Source: an uncultured Verrucomicrobiae bacterium
Lineage (GTDB): Bacteria > Verrucomicrobiota > Verrucomicrobiia > Chthoniobacterales > UBA10450
Assembly (NCBI GenBank): GCA_963815455.1
Contig: CAWFGO010000001.1
Location: forward strand, 1,600,001 to 1,664,000
Reading direction: 5' to 3'
DNA length: 64,000 bases
Below, in pieces: positions 38,914-49,506 of the stretch; positions within the stretch are counted from its first letter, which is position 1, and each line of letters opens with the position of its first letter. Under the pieces are notes generated by a model. The model was given only the letters and a program-made list of their open reading frames with translations, was not told the origin of the DNA and ran no database searches. A program made the translations under genes and the position numbers.

Positions 38914-39098
38914 AGATCCTTCGACTCAAGATGACAAGGGAAGCAATGTCGGGTCATCCCGAACCGCGCGGGCGGTGAGGGATCTCGCAGTCGGCCAAAC
39001 TGCACGCAGGCGGTTATGACCCGTTGCCGGGTGCATCGATTCCCTAGTGCGACAATTCAAGGCGCACTCGCGGGGTCCTTCGCTTCGCTCAGGATGAC
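38914..39098. repeat. REP-like cluster (TGTCATCC family); last unit contains the kbl stop codon
   Basis: agatccttcgactcaagatgac, gtcatcccgaacc..gagggatctc, ggggtccttcgcttcgctcaggatgac (the last identical to the 14737 unit). Confidence 0.8.
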
Positions 39099-40282
39099 GA
39101 ATCGCGGAGTTCCCGGTTTACTTCGGCGAAGGCGTTGACGGCGAATTCCAAATCTTCGCGGGAATGGGCGGCAGAAACCTGGGTGCGAACTCGCGCGGTG
39201 CCATGGGGCACGACCGGATAAAAGAAACCGATGACGTAAACGCCTTTGTCCAGCATGCGGGCGGCGAACTTTTGCGATTTGGCGGCGTCGCCGATCATGA
39301 TCGGAACGATGGGATGCGTGCCGGGTTTGATCGTCAGGCCGCGTTCGGTTAGAGCGGCCCGAAAGTATTTTGTGTTTTCTTCGAGTTTGTCGCGCAGTTC
39401 GGTGGACGCGCTCAAAAGTTCGAGCGCCTTCAGAGACGCGGCCACGACCGGCGGCGCAATCGTGTTTGAAAACAAGTAGGGTCGGGATCGCTGGCGGAGA
39501 AGATCGACAATCTGTTTGCGGCCGCTGGTAAATCCGCCGCTGGCGCCGCCGAGCGCCTTTCCGAGCGTGCCGGTGATGATGTCGATCTTGCCCATGACCC
39601 CGCGATATTCGTGGGTGCCGCGTCCGGTCTTGCCGAGGAATCCGGTGGCGTGGGCGTCGTCGATCATGGTGAGCGCGTTGTATTTCTCGGCAAGATCGAC
39701 AATTTCCTTCAAGCTCGCGATGGTCCCGTCCATCGAGAAACAGCCATCGGTGGCGATTAGCCGGAACCGCGCATCTTTCGCCGCGCCCAACTGCGCTTCG
39801 AGATCGGTCATGTCGTTGTGCTTGTAACGGAAGCGTTGGGCCTTGCAGAGCCGGACACCATCGATGATCGAGGCGTGATTCAATTCATCGCTGATGATCG
39901 CGTCCTTGTCGGTGAGAAGCGTTTCGAACAAGCCGCCGTTCGCATCGAAGCATGACGGATAAAGAATCGTGTCTTCGGTGCCGAGGAATTTCGTCAGCGC
40001 TGCCTCGAGTTCCTTGTGAATGTCCTGAGTGCCGCAAATGAAACGGACGCTGGCCATGCCGAAGCCGTGGGTGTCGAGGGCTTCCTTTGCCGCGGCGATG
40101 AGCGCGGGATGATCGGCCAGGCCGAGATAATTATTCGCGCACATGTTAAGAACGCGTTTGCCGCCGGTGATCGCAATGTGCGCGTCCTGCGGACTGGTGA
40201 TGACCCGTTCGGTCTTGAAGAGGCCCTGCGATTTTATCTCTTCGATGGTCTGAGAAATCTGTTTTTCGAATTCAGCGATCAT
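39089..40282 (-). CDS. kbl: glycine C-acetyltransferase (2-amino-3-ketobutyrate CoA ligase)
   Basis: [59 protein letters not shown]. Confidence 0.95.
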
Positions 40283-40402: not shown

Positions 40403-41122
40403 TTGCGTAACCCCCAGCGCATATTTGCTCAATTTGCCGCGATCGGTGCATTCTTGCTGAGTGCATGCGAAACGACTACACGGGCTTTGCCTCAATACGA
40501 GTCGCGTTTGCCCCAGAGCGATTTTCAAACTGTGCGGACCACGGCCTACACGCATACGGAATCGGATCATCGCCAATTCAGCAATCGCAACGCGCTTGGC
40601 GGCGAATTGCATGCCGCCGGACCGGCGATTCGGCGGGCCGAAAACATCAGTCGCGCGATTGAGGCTTCCGAGAATGATAGTTCCGCCTTGCGGCAGGCAT
40701 CGAATTCCGGCGCACCGCTACAGCCGTTCTCGATGGAACCTGTGGCAAGGCGAGTGACCGCGGCGGCAACAGCAACAAGATCGACATATGCTTTGCCGCG
40801 ATCGGGTGTTTACGGGAGCGCGGCGGCCGATTGGTCGCGCTGGCCCGCCGGCACGATCTTCCGTTTGCTTTCCACCGGGCAAGTCTATCGCGTAGACGAT
40901 TACGGGTGGGCGCTGGCCGGGCGAAACACGATCGACCTTTACATGGCGAACCAGCGGGAAATGAACAACTGGGGCGTGCGGCAGGAATCGATTCAAGTCC
41001 TACAATGGGGCGATCCGCAGGAAAGTTTGCGGTTGCTCGGTCCGCATCAGGAACATCCACAAATCAAGCGGATGATTCTTGAGTTACAGGGGCGAGAGCG
41101 AGAAGCGGCTGAGATGCGGTAG
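40403..41122 (+). CDS. 3D-domain lipoprotein
   Basis: LLSAC lipobox, VRTTAYT, AAADW..GT, VDDYG..IDLY. Confidence 0.8.
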   Translation: MRNPQRIFAQFAAIGAFLLSACETTTRALPQYESRLPQSDFQTVRTTAYTHTESDHRQFSNRNALGGELHAAGPAIRRAENISRAIEASENDSSALRQASNSGAPLQPFSMEPVARRVTAAATATRSTYALPRSGVYGSAAADWSRWPAGTIFRLLSTGQVYRVDDYGWALAGRNTIDLYMANQREMNNWGVRQESIQVLQWGDPQESLRLLGPHQEHPQIKRMILELQGREREAAEMR

Positions 41123-41144: not shown

Positions 41145-41178
41145 AAGAAAGCTCGCCGTGCGGCGAGCTCACTTTCTT
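41145..41178. terminator. probable bidirectional terminator
   Basis: aagaaagctcgccg-tg-cggcgagctcactttctt hairpin between convergent genes. Confidence 0.65.
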
Positions 41179-41237: not shown

Positions 41238-41450
41238 TTACTTGTTTCCAAAACCGCCGTCGATGTTCTTACCGGCTCCGGCGACTCCCGCTCCGGCTAC
41301 GCCAGCTCCAGCGACTCCAGCTCCGGCAACTCCGGCTCCAGCGACCCCGTGTCCGGCAACTCCCGCGCCGGCTACTCCATGTCCGCCGCCTTTGGCGTCT
41401 TTGCGGGGTTTGAGGTCACGAACTTTGATGTTTTTATTTTTCTTAGCCAT
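41238..41450 (-). CDS. double-glycine-leader precursor peptide with G(A/H)GVA x7 core
   Basis: Leader MAKKNKNIKVRDLKPRKDAKGG (22 aa) plus 48-aa core; co-oriented with and downstream of the C39 ABC transporter. Confidence 0.8.
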   Translation of the reverse strand: MAKKNKNIKVRDLKPRKDAKGGGHGVAGAGVAGHGVAGAGVAGAGVAGAGVAGAGVAGAGKNIDGGFGNK

Positions 41451-41451
41451 T

Positions 41452-41634
41452 TTATTTTTCCTTTTTGTTGTAGGTTAGTTGTTGTGGTTCAGTTGCGCCG
41501 AACAACAACCGACGACCCCCCGAGACGTTGGCCTTTGGGATCAGGTCGTCCAAGCGGATCAATTTTTCTTTCTTTCGCCTTTGCTTTCGAATTCCTGATT
41601 CTCCAGCAGCAGCATTTATGTTGTCTTTCGGCAT
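41452..41634 (-). CDS. second putative double-glycine-leader peptide
   Basis: ..KKEKLIRLDDLIPKANVSGG|RRLLFGATEPQQLTYNKKEK; leader aligns with the neighbour; stop is 1 nt before the neighbour's ATG. Confidence 0.65.
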   Translation of the reverse strand: MPKDNINAAAGESGIRKQRRKKEKLIRLDDLIPKANVSGGRRLLFGATEPQQLTYNKKEK

Positions 41635-41655
41635 ACTTTGTTAACGAATCCCATT

Positions 41656-41671
41656 ATCAGTATCCATGCCA
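41656..41671 (-). promoter_or_regulatory. candidate sigma-54 (-24/-12) promoter for the peptide genes
   Basis: TGGCATGGATACTGAT versus consensus TGGCACG-N4-TTGCW; GA replaces GC at -12; ends 22 nt before ATG 41634. Confidence 0.45.
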
Positions 41672-41797
41672 GTGTGGACTCGGCGCCAAAATAGGAGAGT
41701 AATCCGGTGCGAGCATCTGCTTTGTCTTCAGTAATTTACAACTAATTACAATTTCTCGGAATGGCGCATGCGAAGACAAAAAATCGAACACAGCGTT

Positions 41798-41855
41798 GGC
41801 CTCGATCTGAGTCCATCATAGTGCCATTATTAGACCAGCTCGCTCACTTTTGAGC
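41798..41855. promoter_or_regulatory. candidate upstream activator sites
   Basis: Imperfect palindromes ggcctcgatctgagtcc and gctcacttttgagc, about 130-185 bp upstream of the putative promoter. Confidence 0.35.
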
Positions 41856-42842
41856 CATCTTCTGAAGGTGCCGCGTAAGGGTTGCGCGAGAGATGCCAAG
41901 TAGCTTCGCCGTTCGTCGTTGATTCCGATTTGTTTGTTCGTAAACCCGGCTTACATGCCGGCGCACCGCGGCTACCAGCGAAAGATCTTGATCCGATCGA
42001 TCATGATTCTGACCCGGCTGCGAGGCCCGCTCGGATCGATCGTTGTTCGAAGAAGTGTCGGGCAGATCGGGAGGGAAAAGGACATGTTCCGGCAAGATGA
42101 CCGAGCCCTCGCAAAAAAGCGTCATGGTGCGAACCGTATGGTTGAGCTCGCGCAAATTCCCCGGCCAATGGTGGGCAGTGAGCCGCTGCATGGCCTCGGG
42201 ATGGATGGCGGTGATCTTCTTGCCTTCGTTTGCCGCCGCGGTTCTGAGTTCGGCCGCGATGAGCGCGGGCAACTCTTCGATTCGTTCGCGTAACGGAGGA
42301 ATTAACAACGTCAGGCCGTTCAGTCGATGATACAAATCTTCCCGAAATTTTCCCTGGCGCACTCGCTCTCGCAGAGAGCAATTGGTCGCGCAGATGATCC
42401 GGGCTTCGCACTTGAGCAGCCGCTCGGAACCCAGGCGCTCAAACTCGCCGTATTCCAGGGCCCGCAAGACTTTCACCTGGGCCAGGGGGCTCATCTCGGA
42501 GATTTCATCGAGGAAAAGAGTGCCGCCGTGAGCGAGTTCAAATTTTCCTTTCACCGTTTGTTGGGCACCGGTAAACGCGCCGCGTTCGTGACCGAAAAGC
42601 TGGCTATCGAGGAGGGTATCGCTCATAGCCGACGCGTTAAACGCGACGAAAGGTTTGCCGGCGCGCGCCGAGGAATTGTGAATGGCGTGGGCAAGGAGCG
42701 TTTTACCGGTACCAGTTTCTCCCAGAAGCACAACAGGCACCGCGGATCTTGCAGCAAGGGCGGCCAGGCGAAGGCAACGAGCCATCGCTTCATTCGTCGT
42801 GGTCAGGGCCTCGACCGTGAGATTGGAAAGTGCCGGTTGCAT
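41844..42842 (-). CDS. sigma-54-dependent transcriptional activator lacking an N-terminal sensor domain
   Basis: [45 protein letters not shown]-terminal Fis HTH ([12 protein letters not shown]). Confidence 0.92.
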
Positions 42843-42855
42843 CGGGTAAACGGAA

Positions 42856-44040
42856 TTACTCGCGCATATTTTCGCGCAATTGCTTGATCGGCTCGAATGC
42901 GTATTCAATCAGAGTGCGCCGGCCGACCACGATGCGCGCATCGCCTCTCATCCCGACGGACAGGGCCAGCGGCTTGCGGCGCTTGGTGGAGTTGGTCTCA
43001 TCCAGCAAAGCCAATCCCACAAAATGCGGCCCGTCGGCCGAGGAAACGGCAGAGGGACTGACCCAGGAAAGTTTTGCATCCACCGCGCCATAGCGCTGGT
43101 AAGGAAACGCTTCGAAAAACAGGCGGACGCGTTGGTCAGCTTTCAACTTCGGAATTGCGGTTTCGTTGAAGGTTAATCGGGCCCGAACGCTGGATTTTAG
43201 CCGGGCCAGCTGACACAGTTCCTGGCCGCTTTGGACGACGCTGCCGGGGCTGCGTTGCGTCAGGGAGAGAACGACGGCGTCATATGGGGCCCGGATCGAC
43301 AACAGGTTCTGGTCCGAATTCACCAGATCGCCCTTGAGTGCGGACATTCGCATTTTCAGCTTTTCGATCTCGGCAACTTCCTCGCCACGCTTACGCGAGT
43401 GTTCCACCTCCATTCGCTTCCGATCCAGCTTCACCTGTTGCAGCGTCCGCTGCGAAACGCTCAAATCTTTTTCGGATGCCGCCAGATCGAGCCGGAGCCG
43501 GATTAGCTCGACCTGCGAAATACCGCCGCTCGCAGAGAGCGTTTCCATTCGATTAACCAAATCCTTGCTGCTGGCCACGTGTTTTTCCCGAAATTTCACT
43601 TCGCTTTCGGCCTGCCCGATTTCCGCCAATTTAATTTCGAGCTCTGATTTGTAAGCGGCATCGGCCTTGGAAAGGCTCTGCTCACGTGTCCGCAAGTCCT
43701 CGGCGTAGGTTCGTGAATCGGTGCTCAGGCCGCGGATCTCATCAGAACGCAACACGAACAATTGATCGCCTTTCTTCACCTGCTGGCCTTCCGCCACTCC
43801 AATCTGAGTCACAACGGCGAGACGCGGCGATTGAATTGGGTCGGCGCCTTCTTTTGGAATCAGGATAAATGGAGCGTTGACAGTCTCGGGAAGGTGAATG
43901 GTTATTGCGGCGAACAACCCGGCGAAAAACATTGCGATCAAAAGCCAGGCAATGAGCCTCATGATCCTGGGAGGCGGATCCTGGGGCAACATTTCCGACT
44001 CGACCGCCTTGGCGCCGCGTTGAGTTGCAGTTGCGCTCAT
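42856..44040 (-). CDS. HlyD family membrane-fusion protein
   Basis: N-terminal [15 protein letters not shown], coiled coil, [19 protein letters not shown]...[15 protein letters not shown]. Confidence 0.92.
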
Positions 44041-44066
44041 GTTGATTTTTCGGTGATCAAACCACG

Positions 44067-47000
44067 TCAGATTCCTAATTGTTGGCTGGAGAGATAAAAA
44101 TAGAGGCCGCGCTGGGCCATCAGTTCGTCGTGCGTTCCGACTTCGGCCACGCTGCCTTTTTCCAGGACGACTATCGCGTGTGCCTCGCGAATCGTGCTCA
44201 AGCGGTGAGCGATCACAATAGTCGTGCGTCCGGCCATCAGTTTTCCGAGATTATCCTGGATCGCGCGTTCCGATTCCGTGTCGAGCGCGCTGGTGGCTTC
44301 GTCAAAAATTAGCACCGGCGGGTTATTGTAAATCGCGCGAGCAATCGCGACGCGCTGTTTCTGTCCGCCCGACAAAGTCAGTCCCGATTCGCCGATCTTG
44401 GTTTCGTAACCGAGCGGCAATCGCATGATGAAATCGTGCGCCGCCGCTGCCTGAGCCGCGGCCAGAACCCGATCCAGGTCCGGCTCGGCATCACCGAAAG
44501 AAATGTTGCGCGCGATCGTCTCGTTAAAAATGTGGTTCTCCTGCAACACCATTCCAATTTGGTGGCGGACGTCCCGATAATTAAGCGTCTTAAGATCGAC
44601 ATTATCGAACAGGATTGTTCCCTCGGTTGGTTCGAGCAGGCCGGCGATCAATTTGATGAGCGTCGTTTTTCCGCAACCGCTGCGGCCCACCAAGGCAATC
44701 ATTCGTCCCGGCGCAATATCCAGCGTGATGCCTTTCAAAATATCCGGCGATTCCGGCCCGCCGTATTTGAAGCCGACATTGCGTAACTCGATGCGGCCCT
44801 CCAGGCTGTGGACCGGTGTGAGCCGGGAGCGATCTCTTCCCTGCTCGGGTTCCTGTTCGAAAATGTCGTTCAACCGGTTCAGTAGAACGGAAGCGAATTG
44901 CAGGTTGTCCCAGACGCCGAGTGTTCGCATGATTCCTCCGTAGGCCATCGCGGTCAACGAACTAAAAGCAACGAAACCGCCGATGCTCAGGTTTCCCTGT
45001 ATGACCTGGTTTGCTCCGACCCAGAGAAAGATGGCGGTCGAAAGCATACCGATTGTTTGCAGGACACTGTCGTATGACATCACGATGAAGCTGCTCCGAA
45101 AGATTTTCTTCGACACGGCCAGGAATTCGTTGAGCATGGTGTCCCGAAAAACGGACTCGGCGGCGGCCGCCTTCACCGCCTCGATGCCTTTGATCGCATC
45201 GATCTGATGCGAGCTATACTTGCCCTGCGCTTCCTCGACCTCGGCAAACAATGGCCGCAGGACCTTCTTCGAAAAATACATCAGCCCGGCGTAAATCGGC
45301 GTGGTGACAAGAAAAGCCAGCATCAGGGACGGGCTGTAAACAAACATGAGCACGAGCGCGCCGGTGAGCTGCACAAGCGCCAGCAGCGCGCCGATTCCGT
45401 TGCCTACGGCGAATTGCCGGACCTGACGCGCGCCGTCCAACCGCCGCTGAATGTCGCCGGTGCGACGGCTGGTAAAGTAGGTCATCGGCAGAGACAAAAG
45501 CTGGCGGCTCAGGAAATCGAGGATCGCCGTGTCGAGGCGAACGGCCGCGAACGCGAGCAGGTATTCCTGGGCCAGGGCGGAGGCTTGAACAAAAAAGAGC
45601 GCCGCGCCCATGCCCAGCAGGATCGTTTTGAGAAGACCGATGTCCTTCTCGACGATCACCTTGTCCACCACCATTTCGGTAAAGATCGGGAAGAGCAATT
45701 GCAGGAAGCTCACCGCGACTGCCAGCAGGAGCACCTGCAAGAGAATGCGGCGGAACTTCGCGAAAAAGGGCATCAGCCACGCCAGAGTTGCCTTCGACTC
45801 GGGCGCTTTCTCGAACGCAATCGTGTAATCAAACAGCGCGGCATAACCCGACCAGCCTTGTTCGAAGTCTTTTCGCGGAATCCGTCTCAGCCCGAGGCCC
45901 GGATCCGCTACCCGGACGAATTTCTCATCGACATCGTAGAGGACCATCCAATGATTGCCCTCCCAATGAACGATGGCGGGCAACGGCATCTGCGGGAGAT
46001 TGCGCAACGAAACTTTTAACGCGCGGGCGGCCAGACCCAGCTCCGTCGCCGCCCGGCAAAGCGCCTTCAGGCTCGTGCCATCCGTGGCGGTGTGACAAAG
46101 CTGCCGGATGTACGCGAGGCTTACTTTGCGTCCGAAATGACGGCAGATCATGCCCAGACTCGCCGCGCCGCAATCCATCTCGTCGATTTGCTCGATATGC
46201 TCGAACTTGCGGATCGGTTTCTTCCGTTTGCGGAAAAGCCCTGTCTCGTCCGCGAATGGTTCCTCGCCATCTTTGCCGGGCGGGAGCGCGGCTTCTCCGT
46301 CCAGGGCCACCTTGTTCACGGTGGCGGTTTCGGCCGGCAAGTTTTCGACCGTAAAATCCAGCGGAATCCGCGCCTCGGTTTTTGCCTGATATTGCGCGAG
46401 GCGCTCTTCGAGCAGTTTTTGGAACTCCGGGAAGCGGTTTTTCAAATCGTGGACAGCGCTTGGCTCGAGCGCCAGCAAGCGACAATCGGTGAAAGCTTCC
46501 ACCGAGGCCGCCCGAGGCGACCCATTTAAGATCGACAATTCGCCAAAAAAATCGCCGTCCCGGTAGAACGCGAGATTGCGTTCGCGGCCGTTGTTCGCGA
46601 GAAAGGCCCGAGCCCGGCCTTTTTCGAGGATGAACATCGGCCCGGCGGGATCGCCCGCGCGAATGATGAGACCGCCTTTTTGGCAATCCATTGGGGTGAG
46701 ATTCTCGATCATTCCGCGCAAGGCCGCGGCGGGGAGCCGGCCGAAATTGCTGAACTCGTAAAGGAAACCCTGGAGCGCGCGCTGCCGTCCCATGATCTCG
46801 ATGTGGTGTTTTAGCTCAGGAACTTCCGCCACCAGTTGCAGAAAATCGTCGCGATCGAGTCTGATGACGTCGACTGCGGTACTGCAACGGACGCTGGCCG
46901 ATCGCGTGCCGCCCTCGGCCAGGGCTGCTTCGCCAAAAGTGTCGCCCGGCTTGAGCGTGCCCAACGGCAATTCTTGTCCATCCTGGGCCGTCTTGATTGC

Positions 47001-47180
47001 CCGTGCTCGACCGGATGTCAGCACGTAAAACGAGTCGGCCGGGTCGCCTTCTTTGACGATGATCTCGCCGAATTCGTAATGCTCTTCCTGCATCAACGGC
47101 ACGATTTTTTCGAAAATCTCGTCCGGTAGCAGCTTGAACAGCGAGGTTCGTCTTAGCAGAGCATCGTCGTAAGTTTTCAT
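44067..47180 (-). CDS. peptidase-containing ABC transporter (2x cNMP - C39 - TMD - NBD)
   Basis: Two cNMP domains (GDTFGE..RSASV; GDFFGE..RAASV), QIDEMDCGAASL and HWEGNHWMVLYD (C39 Cys/His/Asp), GRSGCGKT, LSGGQKQR, DEATSALD. Confidence 0.95.
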   Translation of the reverse strand: MKTYDDALLRRTSLFKLLPDEIFEKIVPLMQEEHYEFGEIIVKEGDPADSFYVLTSGRARAIKTAQDGQELPLGTLKPGDTFGEAALAEGGTRSASVRCSTAVDVIRLDRDDFLQLVAEVPELKHHIEIMGRQRALQGFLYEFSNFGRLPAAALRGMIENLTPMDCQKGGLIIRAGDPAGPMFILEKGRARAFLANNGRERNLAFYRDGDFFGELSILNGSPRAASVEAFTDCRLLALEPSAVHDLKNRFPEFQKLLEERLAQYQAKTEARIPLDFTVENLPAETATVNKVALDGEAALPPGKDGEEPFADETGLFRKRKKPIRKFEHIEQIDEMDCGAASLGMICRHFGRKVSLAYIRQLCHTATDGTSLKALCRAATELGLAARALKVSLRNLPQMPLPAIVHWEGNHWMVLYDVDEKFVRVADPGLGLRRIPRKDFEQGWSGYAALFDYTIAFEKAPESKATLAWLMPFFAKFRRILLQVLLLAVAVSFLQLLFPIFTEMVVDKVIVEKDIGLLKTILLGMGAALFFVQASALAQEYLLAFAAVRLDTAILDFLSRQLLSLPMTYFTSRRTGDIQRRLDGARQVRQFAVGNGIGALLALVQLTGALVLMFVYSPSLMLAFLVTTPIYAGLMYFSKKVLRPLFAEVEEAQGKYSSHQIDAIKGIEAVKAAAAESVFRDTMLNEFLAVSKKIFRSSFIVMSYDSVLQTIGMLSTAIFLWVGANQVIQGNLSIGGFVAFSSLTAMAYGGIMRTLGVWDNLQFASVLLNRLNDIFEQEPEQGRDRSRLTPVHSLEGRIELRNVGFKYGGPESPDILKGITLDIAPGRMIALVGRSGCGKTTLIKLIAGLLEPTEGTILFDNVDLKTLNYRDVRHQIGMVLQENHIFNETIARNISFGDAEPDLDRVLAAAQAAAAHDFIMRLPLGYETKIGESGLTLSGGQKQRVAIARAIYNNPPVLIFDEATSALDTESERAIQDNLGKLMAGRTTIVIAHRLSTIREAHAIVVLEKGSVAEVGTHDELMAQRGLYFYLSSQQLGI

Positions 47181-48268
47181 TGCGCGTAATTGAGCGGGCC
47201 CCGCCATTGGATGCGGTCGGCCACGAGCTGGCAGAAATGCCGATCAAGGATGGATTGGTCGATCCGGGCCTGAAGGGCCGGGTCATCCGCGTCGGGCGCG
47301 ATCTTTTTCATGATCCGGCACAACTGAAAACCGTCGCCGCGGGTCAGGGGCTCCAGGACTTTTCCGGGCGACACACTGAGAAACTTTTGCTGAAGTTCGT
47401 TGTCGATCTCCTGAAGCAGTAGCTCGACCCGGGTAAATGGATAACGCCCCTCCTTTGCCACTTCTTCCATCGACATTTCATCCTCGGTAACGCAGAGCGA
47501 TGCTTCCCGGGCCGCATCCATCGATTCCACTTCCACCATTTCCACTTCAAATCGCGTTAGCGGCAAACGCAATGCCGCCAGTTCGCTTTGACGCGACTTC
47601 GGATTTAGAAGCTGATCTCTTTTCGCATGCAAGATCGCCTCCATTCGCAGCATTTCATCGAGCCACTCCCGGTTCCGGCCAATGCCGGAAAGCCAGGCCA
47701 CCAATCCGGCCTGATCGATCCCGGTGCGTTCCAAAAAAGATTTCTCCTGCAACGCGATCGAAGCCGGATCGATCTCTTCGGCTTTCGATTCAAAAGCTGC
47801 GGCGACGCGCCAGCTGAGTTCCCTGGCCATCTTGTCGAACTCCCCGGAGAGAATGAGATCGATCTTCAGCAGATCGCGCAAATCCTCCGGTGCCGCAACG
47901 TAATCGATCGCCTTCGGCGCGACTTCGTCGTTCCAATGTTCGCCCCAATAGCGGCGCGCAAAATATTCTCCGAAATCGTCCAGGGTCAGGTCGCGCGCTT
48001 CGAGCCAATGCTCCGTCTCTTCCGCCGTGATCAGGTCATGGTCATAGCGAAATTCTTCCGCCGCCTGGTCCAGCGCGCCCTCCTCGATCTCGAGTTCATC
48101 GGCCTGGTTTTCACACTCGATGCTTCGCAGAAGTTCGTTCCAAATCGGCGCCAGATCGCCACGGAACAAGGCCGCATCGATCACATCCTTTTCCATGTAG
48201 GAAACGCCCTCACACGCGAAAATGGCGACCGGTTCTTTTAGAGTGGGCTGACTATCTTGGTTGGACAC
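47177..48268 (-). CDS. PpiC/SurA-like chaperone associated with the peptide exporter
   Basis: AAEEFRYDHDLITAEETEHWLEARDLTLDDF helical region and a degenerate parvulin-like C-terminus (PGKVLEP..DGFQLCRI); overlaps the transporter start by 4 nt. Confidence 0.65.
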   Translation of the reverse strand: MSNQDSQPTLKEPVAIFACEGVSYMEKDVIDAALFRGDLAPIWNELLRSIECENQADELEIEEGALDQAAEEFRYDHDLITAEETEHWLEARDLTLDDFGEYFARRYWGEHWNDEVAPKAIDYVAAPEDLRDLLKIDLILSGEFDKMARELSWRVAAAFESKAEEIDPASIALQEKSFLERTGIDQAGLVAWLSGIGRNREWLDEMLRMEAILHAKRDQLLNPKSRQSELAALRLPLTRFEVEMVEVESMDAAREASLCVTEDEMSMEEVAKEGRYPFTRVELLLQEIDNELQQKFLSVSPGKVLEPLTRGDGFQLCRIMKKIAPDADDPALQARIDQSILDRHFCQLVADRIQWRGPLNYAQ

Positions 48269-48375
48269 CAGCCCTGTCTCCTAACCGAAAGGGGCATACG
48301 AAGTCTAGCCTAAAAATGCGCCTTTTGGCCTTGTTTTGAGGCCAGTGGGCATTCCTGCCTCGGGCCCGCCCTCCC

Positions 48376-49413
48376 TCAGGACGATATCCTGCCCCAATCG
48401 AGCACGATCTTGCCGGAGTTGCCGGATTTCATTAACTCGATGGCTTCCTTGAATTCCGTGAAGGGAAACCGGTGGGTGATGACGGGTGAGATGTCGAGGC
48501 CGCTTTGAATGAGGGCGGTCATTTTGTACCAGGTCTCATACATTTCGCGGCCGTAGATTCCTTTGATCGTCAGCTGATTAAAAACGACGAGGTTCCAATC
48601 GATCGCAGCGCTTCCGGGCATGATGCCGAGCAGCGCGATTTTGCCGCCGTGAAACATGTTCGGCAAAATGTCGGCGAATGCTTTCGGATTGCCGGACATT
48701 TCAAGCGCGACGTCGAACCCTTCTCTCATGTCGAGCTTGTGCATGGCATCGGTGAGCTTCTCCGTGCGCACGTCCAGGGCGATATCGACGCCCATTTTGC
48801 GGGCGAGATCGAGACGATACGGATTCACGTCGGTAATCACCACGTGACGCGCGCCGGCTTTTTTGCAGATCGGAATAGCCATGCAACCGATCGGGCCGGC
48901 GCCGGTGATGAGAACGTCTTCGCCGACAAGATCGAACGAGAGCGCGGTGTGCACGGCGTTGCCTAACGGATCGAAACAGGAGAGCACATCGAGCGAGATC
49001 GAGGGATCGGCGTGCCAGCAGTTTGATTGTGGGATGGCCACGAACTCGGCGAACGCGCCCGGCCGATTTACGCCGACGCCTTGGGTGTTTGGGCAAAGAT
49101 GACGCCGCCCGGCCAGACAATTCCGGCAATGCCCGCACGTGATATGGCCTTCGCCAACCACGAGATCACCTTTGGCGAACCCTTTCACGTGATCGCCCAC
49201 ACCATCGACAACGCCGACGAACTCGTGCCCGATCGTCATCGGCACCGGGATCGTTTTCTGCGCCCAGGCATCCCAGTTATATATATGTACGTCCGTCCCG
49301 CAGATCGATGTTTTGACCACACGGATCAGCACATCATCGCCCGTGGCCACGGGAACCGGAACGTCCTCGAGCCAAAGTCCCGGATCGGCCCTCGACTTCA
49401 CCACGGCTTTCAT
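48376..49413 (-). CDS. tdh: L-threonine 3-dehydrogenase
   Basis: [53 protein letters not shown]. Confidence 0.96.
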
Positions 49414-49438
49414 TGTTTTTTGCACGACAGGGAGATTA

Positions 49439-49506
49439 TCCACAGATTTCGCAGATTCCTCAGCAAGAATTCTTAATTATCTGCGAAAATCTGCGTAATC
49501 TGTGGA
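49439..49506. repeat. nonamer-based hairpin element
   Basis: tccacagatttcgcagatt ... atctgcgaaaatctgcgtaatctgtgga; a related half-element lies at 38885. Confidence 0.7.

Follow-up and report, generated by a model that had tools for sequence, protein, structure and literature searches.

A Peptidase Transporter Locus of an Uncultured Verrucomicrobial Bacterium in Which One of Two Double-Glycine Peptides Behaves as Partner of a Sigma-54 Activator

Introduction

What does a peptidase-containing ABC transporter (PCAT) export, and what controls it, if its gene cluster carries two small precursors with double-glycine (GG) leaders, a sigma-54 activator and no tailoring enzyme? This question is raised by a locus of an uncultured Verrucomicrobiae bacterium (assembly GCA_963815455.1, contig CAWFGO010000001.1), of whose genome (G000, 90% complete) we analyzed a stretch of 64,000 nucleotides (nt), here called the window; coordinates are positions in this whole stretch unless a contig or locus is named. 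Six minus-strand genes encode a SurA/PrsA-like chaperone, the transporter, a HlyD-type membrane fusion protein, a sensor-less sigma-54 activator and the two peptides, PepA and PepB (Table 1). An earlier note on this DNA had described the six co-oriented genes, the two GG-leader open reading frames (ORFs) and the terminator, all of which are confirmed at their positions by coordinates and ORF calls. It had also taken the two peptides for equivalent cargo, and here the picture changes: PepA and PepB are not equivalent, and PepA acts like a partner of the activator rather than like a product.

The feature is real and conserved and no artefact, and a good case can be made for a known exporter cluster in a new variant form with an undescribed regulatory circuit. 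In the reading that we prefer, and to which we give about an even chance, PepA is an anti-activator that the transporter protease removes, so that export would switch on a matrix regulon.

Results and Discussion

PepA Is Conserved and PepB Is Hypervariable

PepA forms a single conserved family, in which IRLDDLIP precedes the GG and LLFG follows it and which is kept across classes and into another phylum. Its codon conservation of 0.89/0.94/0.72 at positions 1/2/3 (43 of 50 rows matching the core pattern) indicates selection at the protein level and hence a real gene, and pepA stands first behind the sigma-54 promoter in the loci that were read. A profile search with PepA returned 2007 proteins among 4671 candidates. 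The invariance seen in our alignment A5 (made from 35 of the 50 rows together with the window's copy and two distant ones) is inflated, since mis-started, frameshifted, truncated and degenerate PepAs as well as loci with a broken activator were omitted from it. The window's own PepA has lost the usual GTG start and begins with an ATG two codons downstream.

PepB-type cargo is, by contrast, hypervariable and repeat-rich. Its Lys-rich leader (V.DL.P.KDA.GG) was found in 84 ORFs in 54 of 81 loci, a count that includes the window and in which many loci end before the peptide region; among the 57 evaluable loci, cargo peptides are present in 53, so that the linkage of the transporter to small GG ORFs, on which the earlier note had staked its proposal, held. 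The 83 distinct cargo cores comprise 11–48 amino acids (aa), are rich in Gly, Ala, Arg, Ser, Thr and Asn, lack Cys and have a median net charge of +4, and tandem repeats occur in 42 of them (mean of shuffled cores 10.8, maximum 17). For the leaders of both PepA and PepB no NCBIfam model matched at E up to 1, in agreement with the earlier remark that they cannot be assigned to a known class, and the matches of PepB in the Atlas were all below 0.9 and without names.

PepA Follows the Activator

An alignment-based scan of genomes, which succeeded where a single-protein scan of contigs had found nothing, gave 230 confirmed genome matches, of which the best 80 loci were analyzed. The named relatives are Chthoniobacterales (Verrucomicrobiota), with many soil metagenomes among the matches. 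The transporter match adjoins the chaperone in 80 of 80 loci (one being a remnant only) and gene order is constant. Chaperone homologues occur in 26 of 39 genomes of the family (25 of 38 without the unpublished genome G173), 32 of 301 of the order and 6 of 401 of the phylum, as well as, at E <1e-10, in 9 of 301 genomes of the phylum of the record labeled Terriglobales; the other 43 of the 52 matches in that last scan (E >1e-10, mostly to the parvulin region) were set aside. A cluster look-up of 10 distant homologues returned no informative names.

In the 39 genomes of the family, chaperone, activator orthologue and PepA are inherited together: all 26 genomes with the system have the three, and the 13 without it have none of them. 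The same association is visible in decay, for which we used the unfiltered table of the 57 evaluable loci. Activator and PepA are both intact in 47 of them (47 of the 49 with an intact activator), in three a lone frameshift affects the activator while PepA is intact, and one has lost everything; in the four loci with a heavily broken or deleted activator, PepA is defective in each case while transporter, HlyD and cargo are intact. Conversely, locus L059 retains transporter, activator and PepA and has lost HlyD and an intact cargo gene. Two genomes of another class, G540 and G629, have chaperone and transporter standing alone and the activator orthologue unlinked, and HlyD and the cargo leader were not found in them with the queries used. 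They nevertheless contain five PepA copies (three and two, respectively), four of them behind a recognizable sigma-54-type motif, which stand at the head of adhesin-like genes, or runs of genes, coding for large proteins that begin like pilins; tandem-95 repeats occur in four of these proteins. In G286, and in the other phylum's G748, PepA likewise comes after the activator, and no PepA match was obtained in six genomes of this phylum that carry the transporter cassette and lack an activator orthologue. In the broader reading given below, chaperone, transporter, activator and PepA would be the core of the system, and HlyD and cargo optional add-ons.

These data bear on the strongest competitor, the view of the earlier note and a reading of clearly lower probability, though one to be taken seriously, in which both peptides are exported products, be they unmodified and microcin-like or part of a matrix, with PepA as a conserved second component and the activator constitutive or otherwise controlled. 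Such a role would suit the related GG leaders of PepA and PepB and their translational coupling across a gap of 1 nt, and it has a precedent in EbfG1-4/PteB, where several unmodified GG peptides are co-exported (PMC4997328). It is hard to reconcile, however, with a PepA that is retained where HlyD and cargo were not found and that decays with the activator and not with the transporter, with a second promoter copy in the same genome (see below) that keeps the cargo and has lost the PepA core, and with a model of the PepA-activator complex that passes its controls.

Separately from the co-inheritance data, L158, L159, L160 and L161 encode large proteins with pilin-like N-termini, mostly of the tandem-95 type, each after a PepA copy, and represent an unnamed surface-protein family.

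A Predicted Complex of PepA and the Activator

The activators of these systems form one distinct clade (support 100). In the window's activator, Walker A and B, GAFTGA, sensor II and the helix-turn-helix (HTH) domain are all intact and the N-terminal regulatory domain is absent. The anti-activator reading calls for PepA to bind this protein, and structure prediction supports such binding. With activator residues 1–262 and PepA the complex score was 0.72, compared with 0.00 for the best control; the mark applied to this score, attained by 116 of 157 solved complexes as against 2 of 215 mismatched pairs, is a rough one here, where our own alignments were used. The runs share at least 86% of contacts, with a predicted local distance difference test (pLDDT) value of at least 55 for the partner. 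On the PepA side, the predicted contacts are residues 23–33 and 40–50, which include most of its invariant residues and flank the GG, so that a cut at the GG, lying between the two segments, would split the binding surface. On the activator side they include residues 8, 12–15, 46, 49–50, 230 and 234; PepA 23–33 is predicted to pair with the lid strand 210–215 and PepA 40–50 with residues 12–15, F45 being placed against residues 13, 14, 20, 24, 46, 49 and 50. We know of no solved complex of this kind. By comparison with PspF, we take the contact region to be the adenine end of the ATP site, and an approximate mapping (to about one residue) places the contact residues in the region of the linker of LuxO and of its Gln363 at the ATP site (PMC4878744). 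From these two comparisons, the PepA contacts probably lie at the ATP pocket of the activator. At the interface, E198 and H214 stand where Phe and Ser are usual, and neither residue occurs in the two clade activators that lack PepA.

Co-inheritance, co-decay and predicted binding would be compatible with either sign of regulation, and PepA could in principle be a positive regulator, namely as a co-activator, or as a pheromone that is exported and whose mature half re-enters the cell in a quorum-type positive loop. We consider this unlikely. The conserved LLFG after the GG and an OPT-family peptide importer next to one distant cassette would fit a returning peptide, but neither a receptor nor an importer is a recurrent neighbor of the loci. 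The binding site in the model overlaps with the probable ATP pocket and depends on leader residues expected to remain inside the cell, and known sensor-less activators are inhibited in trans (PMC7057263).

Two further peculiarities of the activator clade are its Walker A motif, GKT versus GKE in all 18 generic activators compared, and a cluster of other clade-specific changes at residues 68–75.

Cargo Peptides and the Question of Tailoring

GG-type leaders with a cognate PCAT, as known for class II bacteriocins and microcins, are present here. The spacing of hydrophobic residues in the cargo leader departs, however, from the usual class II consensus, and the cores are polar, cationic and repetitive, unlike typical pore-forming bacteriocins. 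No immunity gene was found, the peptides being the only conserved ORFs between activator and terminator. Most likely, and with somewhat more than an even chance, PepB-type cargo serves as surface or matrix peptides; a strain-specific signal is far less probable, and an antimicrobial function ranks slightly lower again. Among other GG-leader ORFs, one at C2:291889-292077 on the minus strand (L083) has an acidic, divergent leader and Gly/Lys repeats, and two orphan GG peptides (L290 and L163:6081-6260) have short tails that presumably resemble an Hcp motif and an H-X9-DG motif.

As the earlier note had stated, the locus contains no tailoring, immunity or TolC gene; TolC-type genes were found elsewhere in the genome. 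Of 326 neighbor families, 249 occur in one locus only; of the 77 seen in at least two loci, 55 were scanned (the remainder being core, spurious frames or, by eye, housekeeping), and no modifying family was found to recur near the loci. In the 90% complete genome, neither YcaO nor GT41 was found by searches whose controls were detected, and all 15 radical SAM proteins, PqqE included, match housekeeping or cofactor families; a LanC search was uninformative, its own control going undetected. These four families are what the survey of tailoring enzymes covered. Remote modification of the cargo, which the earlier note had left as an option next to export in unmodified form, is disfavored in this genome. 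The dedicated export route for short GG-leader peptides without a local tailoring enzyme that it had proposed is supported and, moreover, conserved.

In other lineages, the exporter module serves clusters for peptides that are ribosomally synthesized and modified after translation (RiPPs), since distant cassettes adjoin radical SAM, methyltransferase or ATP-grasp genes. For the present system it is improbable that the cargo consists of RiPP precursors modified by remotely encoded enzymes, with the SurA-like protein as a MirC-like partner. MirC (TIGR04500) is required for graspetide maturation (PMC13097080), the distant cassettes just mentioned exist and the cargo cores are mostly Ser/Thr-rich (79 of 83 with Ser or Thr), yet the core in the window contains no Ser, Thr or Cys, the cores share no modifiable motif, and the surveys of genome and neighborhoods argue in the same direction.

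Single loci of this kind include L122:12396-13595 and L164:1321-2574, where an S-adenosylmethionine-dependent methyltransferase stands beside cargo genes in two distant genomes, and L129, where a graspetide-like cluster of the MirC kind combines a pair of SurA-like genes with an ATP-grasp ligase, a GG precursor and a related transporter.

Promoter, Enhancer Sites and Candidate Regulon

The sigma-54-type (-24/-12) element before pepA is the top match of the promoter matrix in the genome, and rpoN is present. In 49 of 50 loci it lies 26–36 nt upstream of the PepA start, the remaining start being mis-called; T-14, G-13 and T-11 are invariant across the 50 loci and position -12 is T, A or G, never the usual C, whereas the GG of the element was imposed by the search pattern. 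Upstream of it, a 16-bp enhancer motif, GGctcAaattTgagCC, was learned on 49 other loci with the studied window held out. It is present at least twice in 43 of these 49 training loci, and the held-out window, with three sites some 21 bp apart, outscores all 4000 random windows. The most upstream cluster of sites overlaps the stop region of the activator gene. A hand-made consensus had given weak enrichment (49 sites vs. a shuffled mean of 20), and a 17-bp motif was rejected, as it represents the activator's own coding sequence.

The start codon of PepA lies only a few bases past the expected transcription start, and the pepA message may for that reason be nearly leaderless. That pepA works in cis, bringing ribosomes onto such a transcript as its leader ORF and coupling translation of the next gene, is highly improbable: it is the first ORF, ends near the next start and is copied before several operons in G540 and G629, but translational coupling needs no amino-acid motif kept across phyla with synonymous variation, and a shortened pepA remnant suffices at the second promoter copy.

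This second copy, in the same genome, is a duplication of enhancer, promoter, PepA remnant and cargo gene (C3:21070-21510). Enhancer and sigma-54 promoter also precede the priming-glycosyltransferase gene of an exopolysaccharide-type operon (C1:427-1464). Held-out exopolysaccharide promoters carry enhancer pairs, the fraction of random windows scoring as high being 0.002–0.019. Two other promoter matches, C1:995906 and C3:71014, have no enhancer pair and were rejected as regulon members.

A Proposed Circuit

In the anti-activator reading, these elements would work together as follows. A housekeeping-type promoter, suggested by conserved boxes, would make chaperone, transporter, HlyD and the sensor-less activator. 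The activator would bind the palindromes at the end of its own gene and fire the sigma-54 promoter of pepA-pepB and, to judge from the motifs found there as well, the promoter copies before the orphan cargo gene and the exopolysaccharide operon. PepA, the first product, would bind the activator via the two segments flanking the GG and most likely block the ATP site, as the model and the co-inheritance suggest, which would constitute a negative feedback. The C39 protease, going by C39 biochemistry, would cut PepA at the GG, move its C-terminal half out of the cytoplasm and so free the activator. As suggested by HetC, the tandem cyclic nucleotide (cNMP)-binding domains may gate the transporter, and the missing sensor of the activator would therefore in effect have moved to the exporter. 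Precursors of the PepB type would be cut and would leave the cell unmodified by way of HlyD and a shared TolC-type channel; the SurA-like protein, which is acidic, would probably hold their basic leaders and hand them over. In more general terms, and with a probability that we put just short of even, the PCAT would be a signal-transducing protease: its cNMP domains would sense a signal in the cytoplasm, the GG peptide that plugs the ATP site of the activator would be cut and removed, and genes for exopolysaccharide, adhesins and repeat peptides would come on.

Several observations weigh against this reading. To begin with, the negative direction of regulation by PepA is a proposal. The complex was folded without ATP, and the Phe placed in a vacant nucleotide pocket may be artefactual; PepB, a closer control, was not among the controls, and clade-specific residues are only marginally enriched at the interface (7 of 29, p = 0.054). 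Concerning inheritance, the genomes are kin and the genes mostly linked, and the four co-decay loci may represent only 2–3 events; an intact activator accompanies a defective PepA in 2 of the 57 loci (one frameshift, in L005, and one contig end), and the clade activators of G644 and G787 come without any PepA match. G540 and G629 are 91–92% complete, so that HlyD or cargo could have been missed, the distant PepA of G286 shows AG where GG is expected, and orphan cargo leaders turn up in two genomes that lack the system. With respect to the regulon, neither the third GG ORF (C2:291889-292077) nor eight orphan cargo-leader matches in relatives have a sigma-54 motif. Of the 16 relatives (out of 39) with the exopolysaccharide gene, just four have a promoter score of at least 12 and a fifth is borderline. 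All five have enhancer pairs, and the motif is absent in two genomes without the system (control stretches reach at most 7.4); on these counts, the regulatory link to the exopolysaccharide operon appears real, yet not universal.

If the proposal is true, a gene that mining tools would call a bacteriocin precursor would be a transcriptional regulator and the exporter a sensor. The logic known from ExsE and FlgM would extend to peptidase ABC transporters, i.e., to secretion-coupled transcription for type I/PCAT export, and abundant soil bacteria would possess a new mode of control of AAA+ activators. It would also suggest a role for the unexplained cNMP domains of HetC-type transporters, and define a regulon of exopolysaccharide, surface proteins and repeat peptides in a mostly uncultured soil lineage.

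Relation to Known Systems

The transport core is an already described architecture: cyanobacterial group I bacteriocin clusters combine a long-type C39 transporter carrying an N-terminal CAP_ED/cNMP domain with HlyD and SurA/rotamase and have no modifying enzyme (PMC3140520), and the trio described here matches them, the rotamase by fold. Differences lie in the host, here Verrucomicrobiota, and in the leader, which falls outside NHLP, N11P, HetP and DUF37 in the NCBIfam scan and has DL just 8 residues ahead of the GG, compared with KIxDLxYLEx10GG in the HetP motif. Sigma-54 activator, promoter and PepA have no counterpart in the available description of group I (PMC3140520). The claim of an undescribed system therefore does not extend to the transport core, while for the circuit it stands as far as the open-access literature without supplements goes, in which we found neither this locus nor a PCAT-cleaved anti-activator; supplementary catalogues of biosynthetic gene clusters may list the cassette.

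Among other PCATs, PteB of Synechococcus elongatus exports EbfG1-4 together, unmodified peptides with lineage-specific mature parts that promote biofilm and of which EbfG1-3 form amyloid (PMC4997328; PMC9981879). An extracellular inhibitor controls that system, for which the available parts of these sources describe no sigma-54 activator or anti-activator peptide, and we draw on the likeness as an analogy. HetC of Nostoc PCC 7120 is a PCAT with an essential cNMP domain that binds guanosine tetraphosphate (ppGpp) in vitro and is thought to export a regulatory peptide (PMC10986499); the available description names neither a substrate nor a link to an enhancer-binding protein, and the transporter studied here has two cNMP domains. 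MirC (TIGR04500), the SurA-like cytoplasmic partner needed for graspetide maturation (PMC13097080; cf. PMC8939145), shares with our chaperone the position beside a peptide precursor and a peptidase transporter, the difference being a TIGR04500 score below the cut-off and a locus without ATP-grasp ligase.

On the regulatory side, the sensor-less AAA+/HTH architecture, the -24/-12 promoter with upstream palindromes and rpoN, taken as motif evidence, place the activator with the PspF/HrpRS type. PspA and HrpV belong to the regulon of the activator they inhibit; neither is known to be a GG-leader peptide or to be cleaved by an ABC exporter. FlgM is an anti-sigma-28 factor removed by flagellar export. 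PspF and HrpRS themselves are sensor-less sigma-54 activators inhibited in trans by PspA/HrpV (PMC7057263), and in type III secretion the export of ExsE, a small negative regulator, switches transcription on (PMC3372540). ExsE and FlgM differ from the proposal for PepA in that they leave by type III or flagellar export without proteolysis and target an AraC-type cascade or a sigma factor and not an AAA+ activator. In the enhancer-binding protein LuxO, the ATP site is filled by a short peptide segment that is also able to inhibit in trans (PMC4878744), that segment being the protein's own linker, freed by phosphorylation.

Anatomy of the Locus and Minor Observations

Table 1. Features of the locus, with positions in the 64,000-nt window.
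Feature	Position	Strand	Remarks
Putative sigma-70-type promoter of the transport/activator operon	48278..48308	-	Conserved -35-like/-10-like boxes directly before the first gene; would serve as promoter
SurA/PrsA-like chaperone, parvulin (PpiC) fold	47177..48268	-	Model pLDDT 89; Foldseek matches to PrsA/SurA
Peptidase-containing ABC transporter	44067..47207	-	Two N-terminal cNMP-binding domains, C39 peptidase, membrane domain, ATPase
HlyD-type membrane fusion protein	42856..44040	-	Family-model matches
Sensor-less sigma-54 enhancer-binding protein, 332 aa	41844..42842	-	Likely start ATG 42842; AAA+ with GAFTGA, Fis-type HTH
Three palindromic enhancer (upstream activating sequence)-like sites	41841-41856, 41821-41836, 41798-41813	-	Spacing ~20–23 bp; consensus GGctcAaattTgagCC
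Sigma-54 (-24/-12) promoter-like element	41656..41671	-	Nearly constant distance to PepA start in 50 loci
PepA, 60 aa, proposed anti-activator	41452..41634	-	GG at residues 39–40; motif IRLDDLIP...GG|RxLLFG
PepB, 70 aa, cargo precursor	41238..41450	-	22-aa Lys-rich leader ending in GG and 48-aa Gly/Ala/Val repeat core
Bidirectional intrinsic terminator	41149..41170	both	Common to convergent gene 40403-41122

The genes are separated by 26 nt (transporter-HlyD), 13 nt (HlyD-activator) and 209 nt (activator-PepA), and because the last of these gaps contains the sigma-54 promoter and the enhancer sites, the locus probably comprises two transcription units. The transporter, the genome's only C39 domain protein, has the other parts expected of a PCAT, namely a membrane domain and an ATPase in which Walker A, signature and Walker B are present. 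Its C39 domain (PF03412, 123 bits) retains the catalytic set Q340, C346, H419 and D435, as the earlier note had seen, and Cys and His are kept in every pattern-captured homologue among the 40 patterns listed. The first gene had been called PpiC-like, which holds by fold (PpiC domain of 3gpk: VIA Z 10.1, root-mean-square deviation 2.2, 93 aligned; see also Table 1) and not by family models: the chaperone matched 0 Pfam families and reached 38.3 bits with TIGR04500, below the curated cut-off of 180. In 11 of 58 homologues Pfam Rotamase_2 was matched. With an isoelectric point of 4.5 and no hydrophobic signal segment in its hydropathy profile, the chaperone is acidic and, for want of that segment, probably cytoplasmic.

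The boxes of the sigma-70-type promoter were recognized by visual inspection of the sequences upstream of 76 loci, and a scan for such promoters gave 3 sites, not above the 2.6 expected by chance. Directly upstream, an enhancer-like palindrome (48327-48343), present in some relatives, would make autoregulation of the transport operon possible. A TolC-type outer-membrane efflux gene lies in pieces at C3:25631-27210 on the minus strand (L082), some 4 kb away from the second copy of promoter and cargo gene. The convergent gene beyond the terminator has a weak 3D-domain match and a lipoprotein-like start. The cassette is flanked by kbl-like and tdh-like genes (39089-40282 and 48376-49443), with tdh upstream in 30 loci, and may have been inserted into a tdh-kbl operon.

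Finally, variants of the arrangement occur in distant loci. In L124:10980-11892 the activator is followed by a different GG peptide and then by a TPR gene, whose tail we take to resemble an O-GlcNAc-transferase-type protein. L095:6968-9943 encodes a transporter relative whose ATPase match is weak (29 bits); HlyD is missing there and a clade activator adjoins, so that this could be a form with a purely regulatory role.

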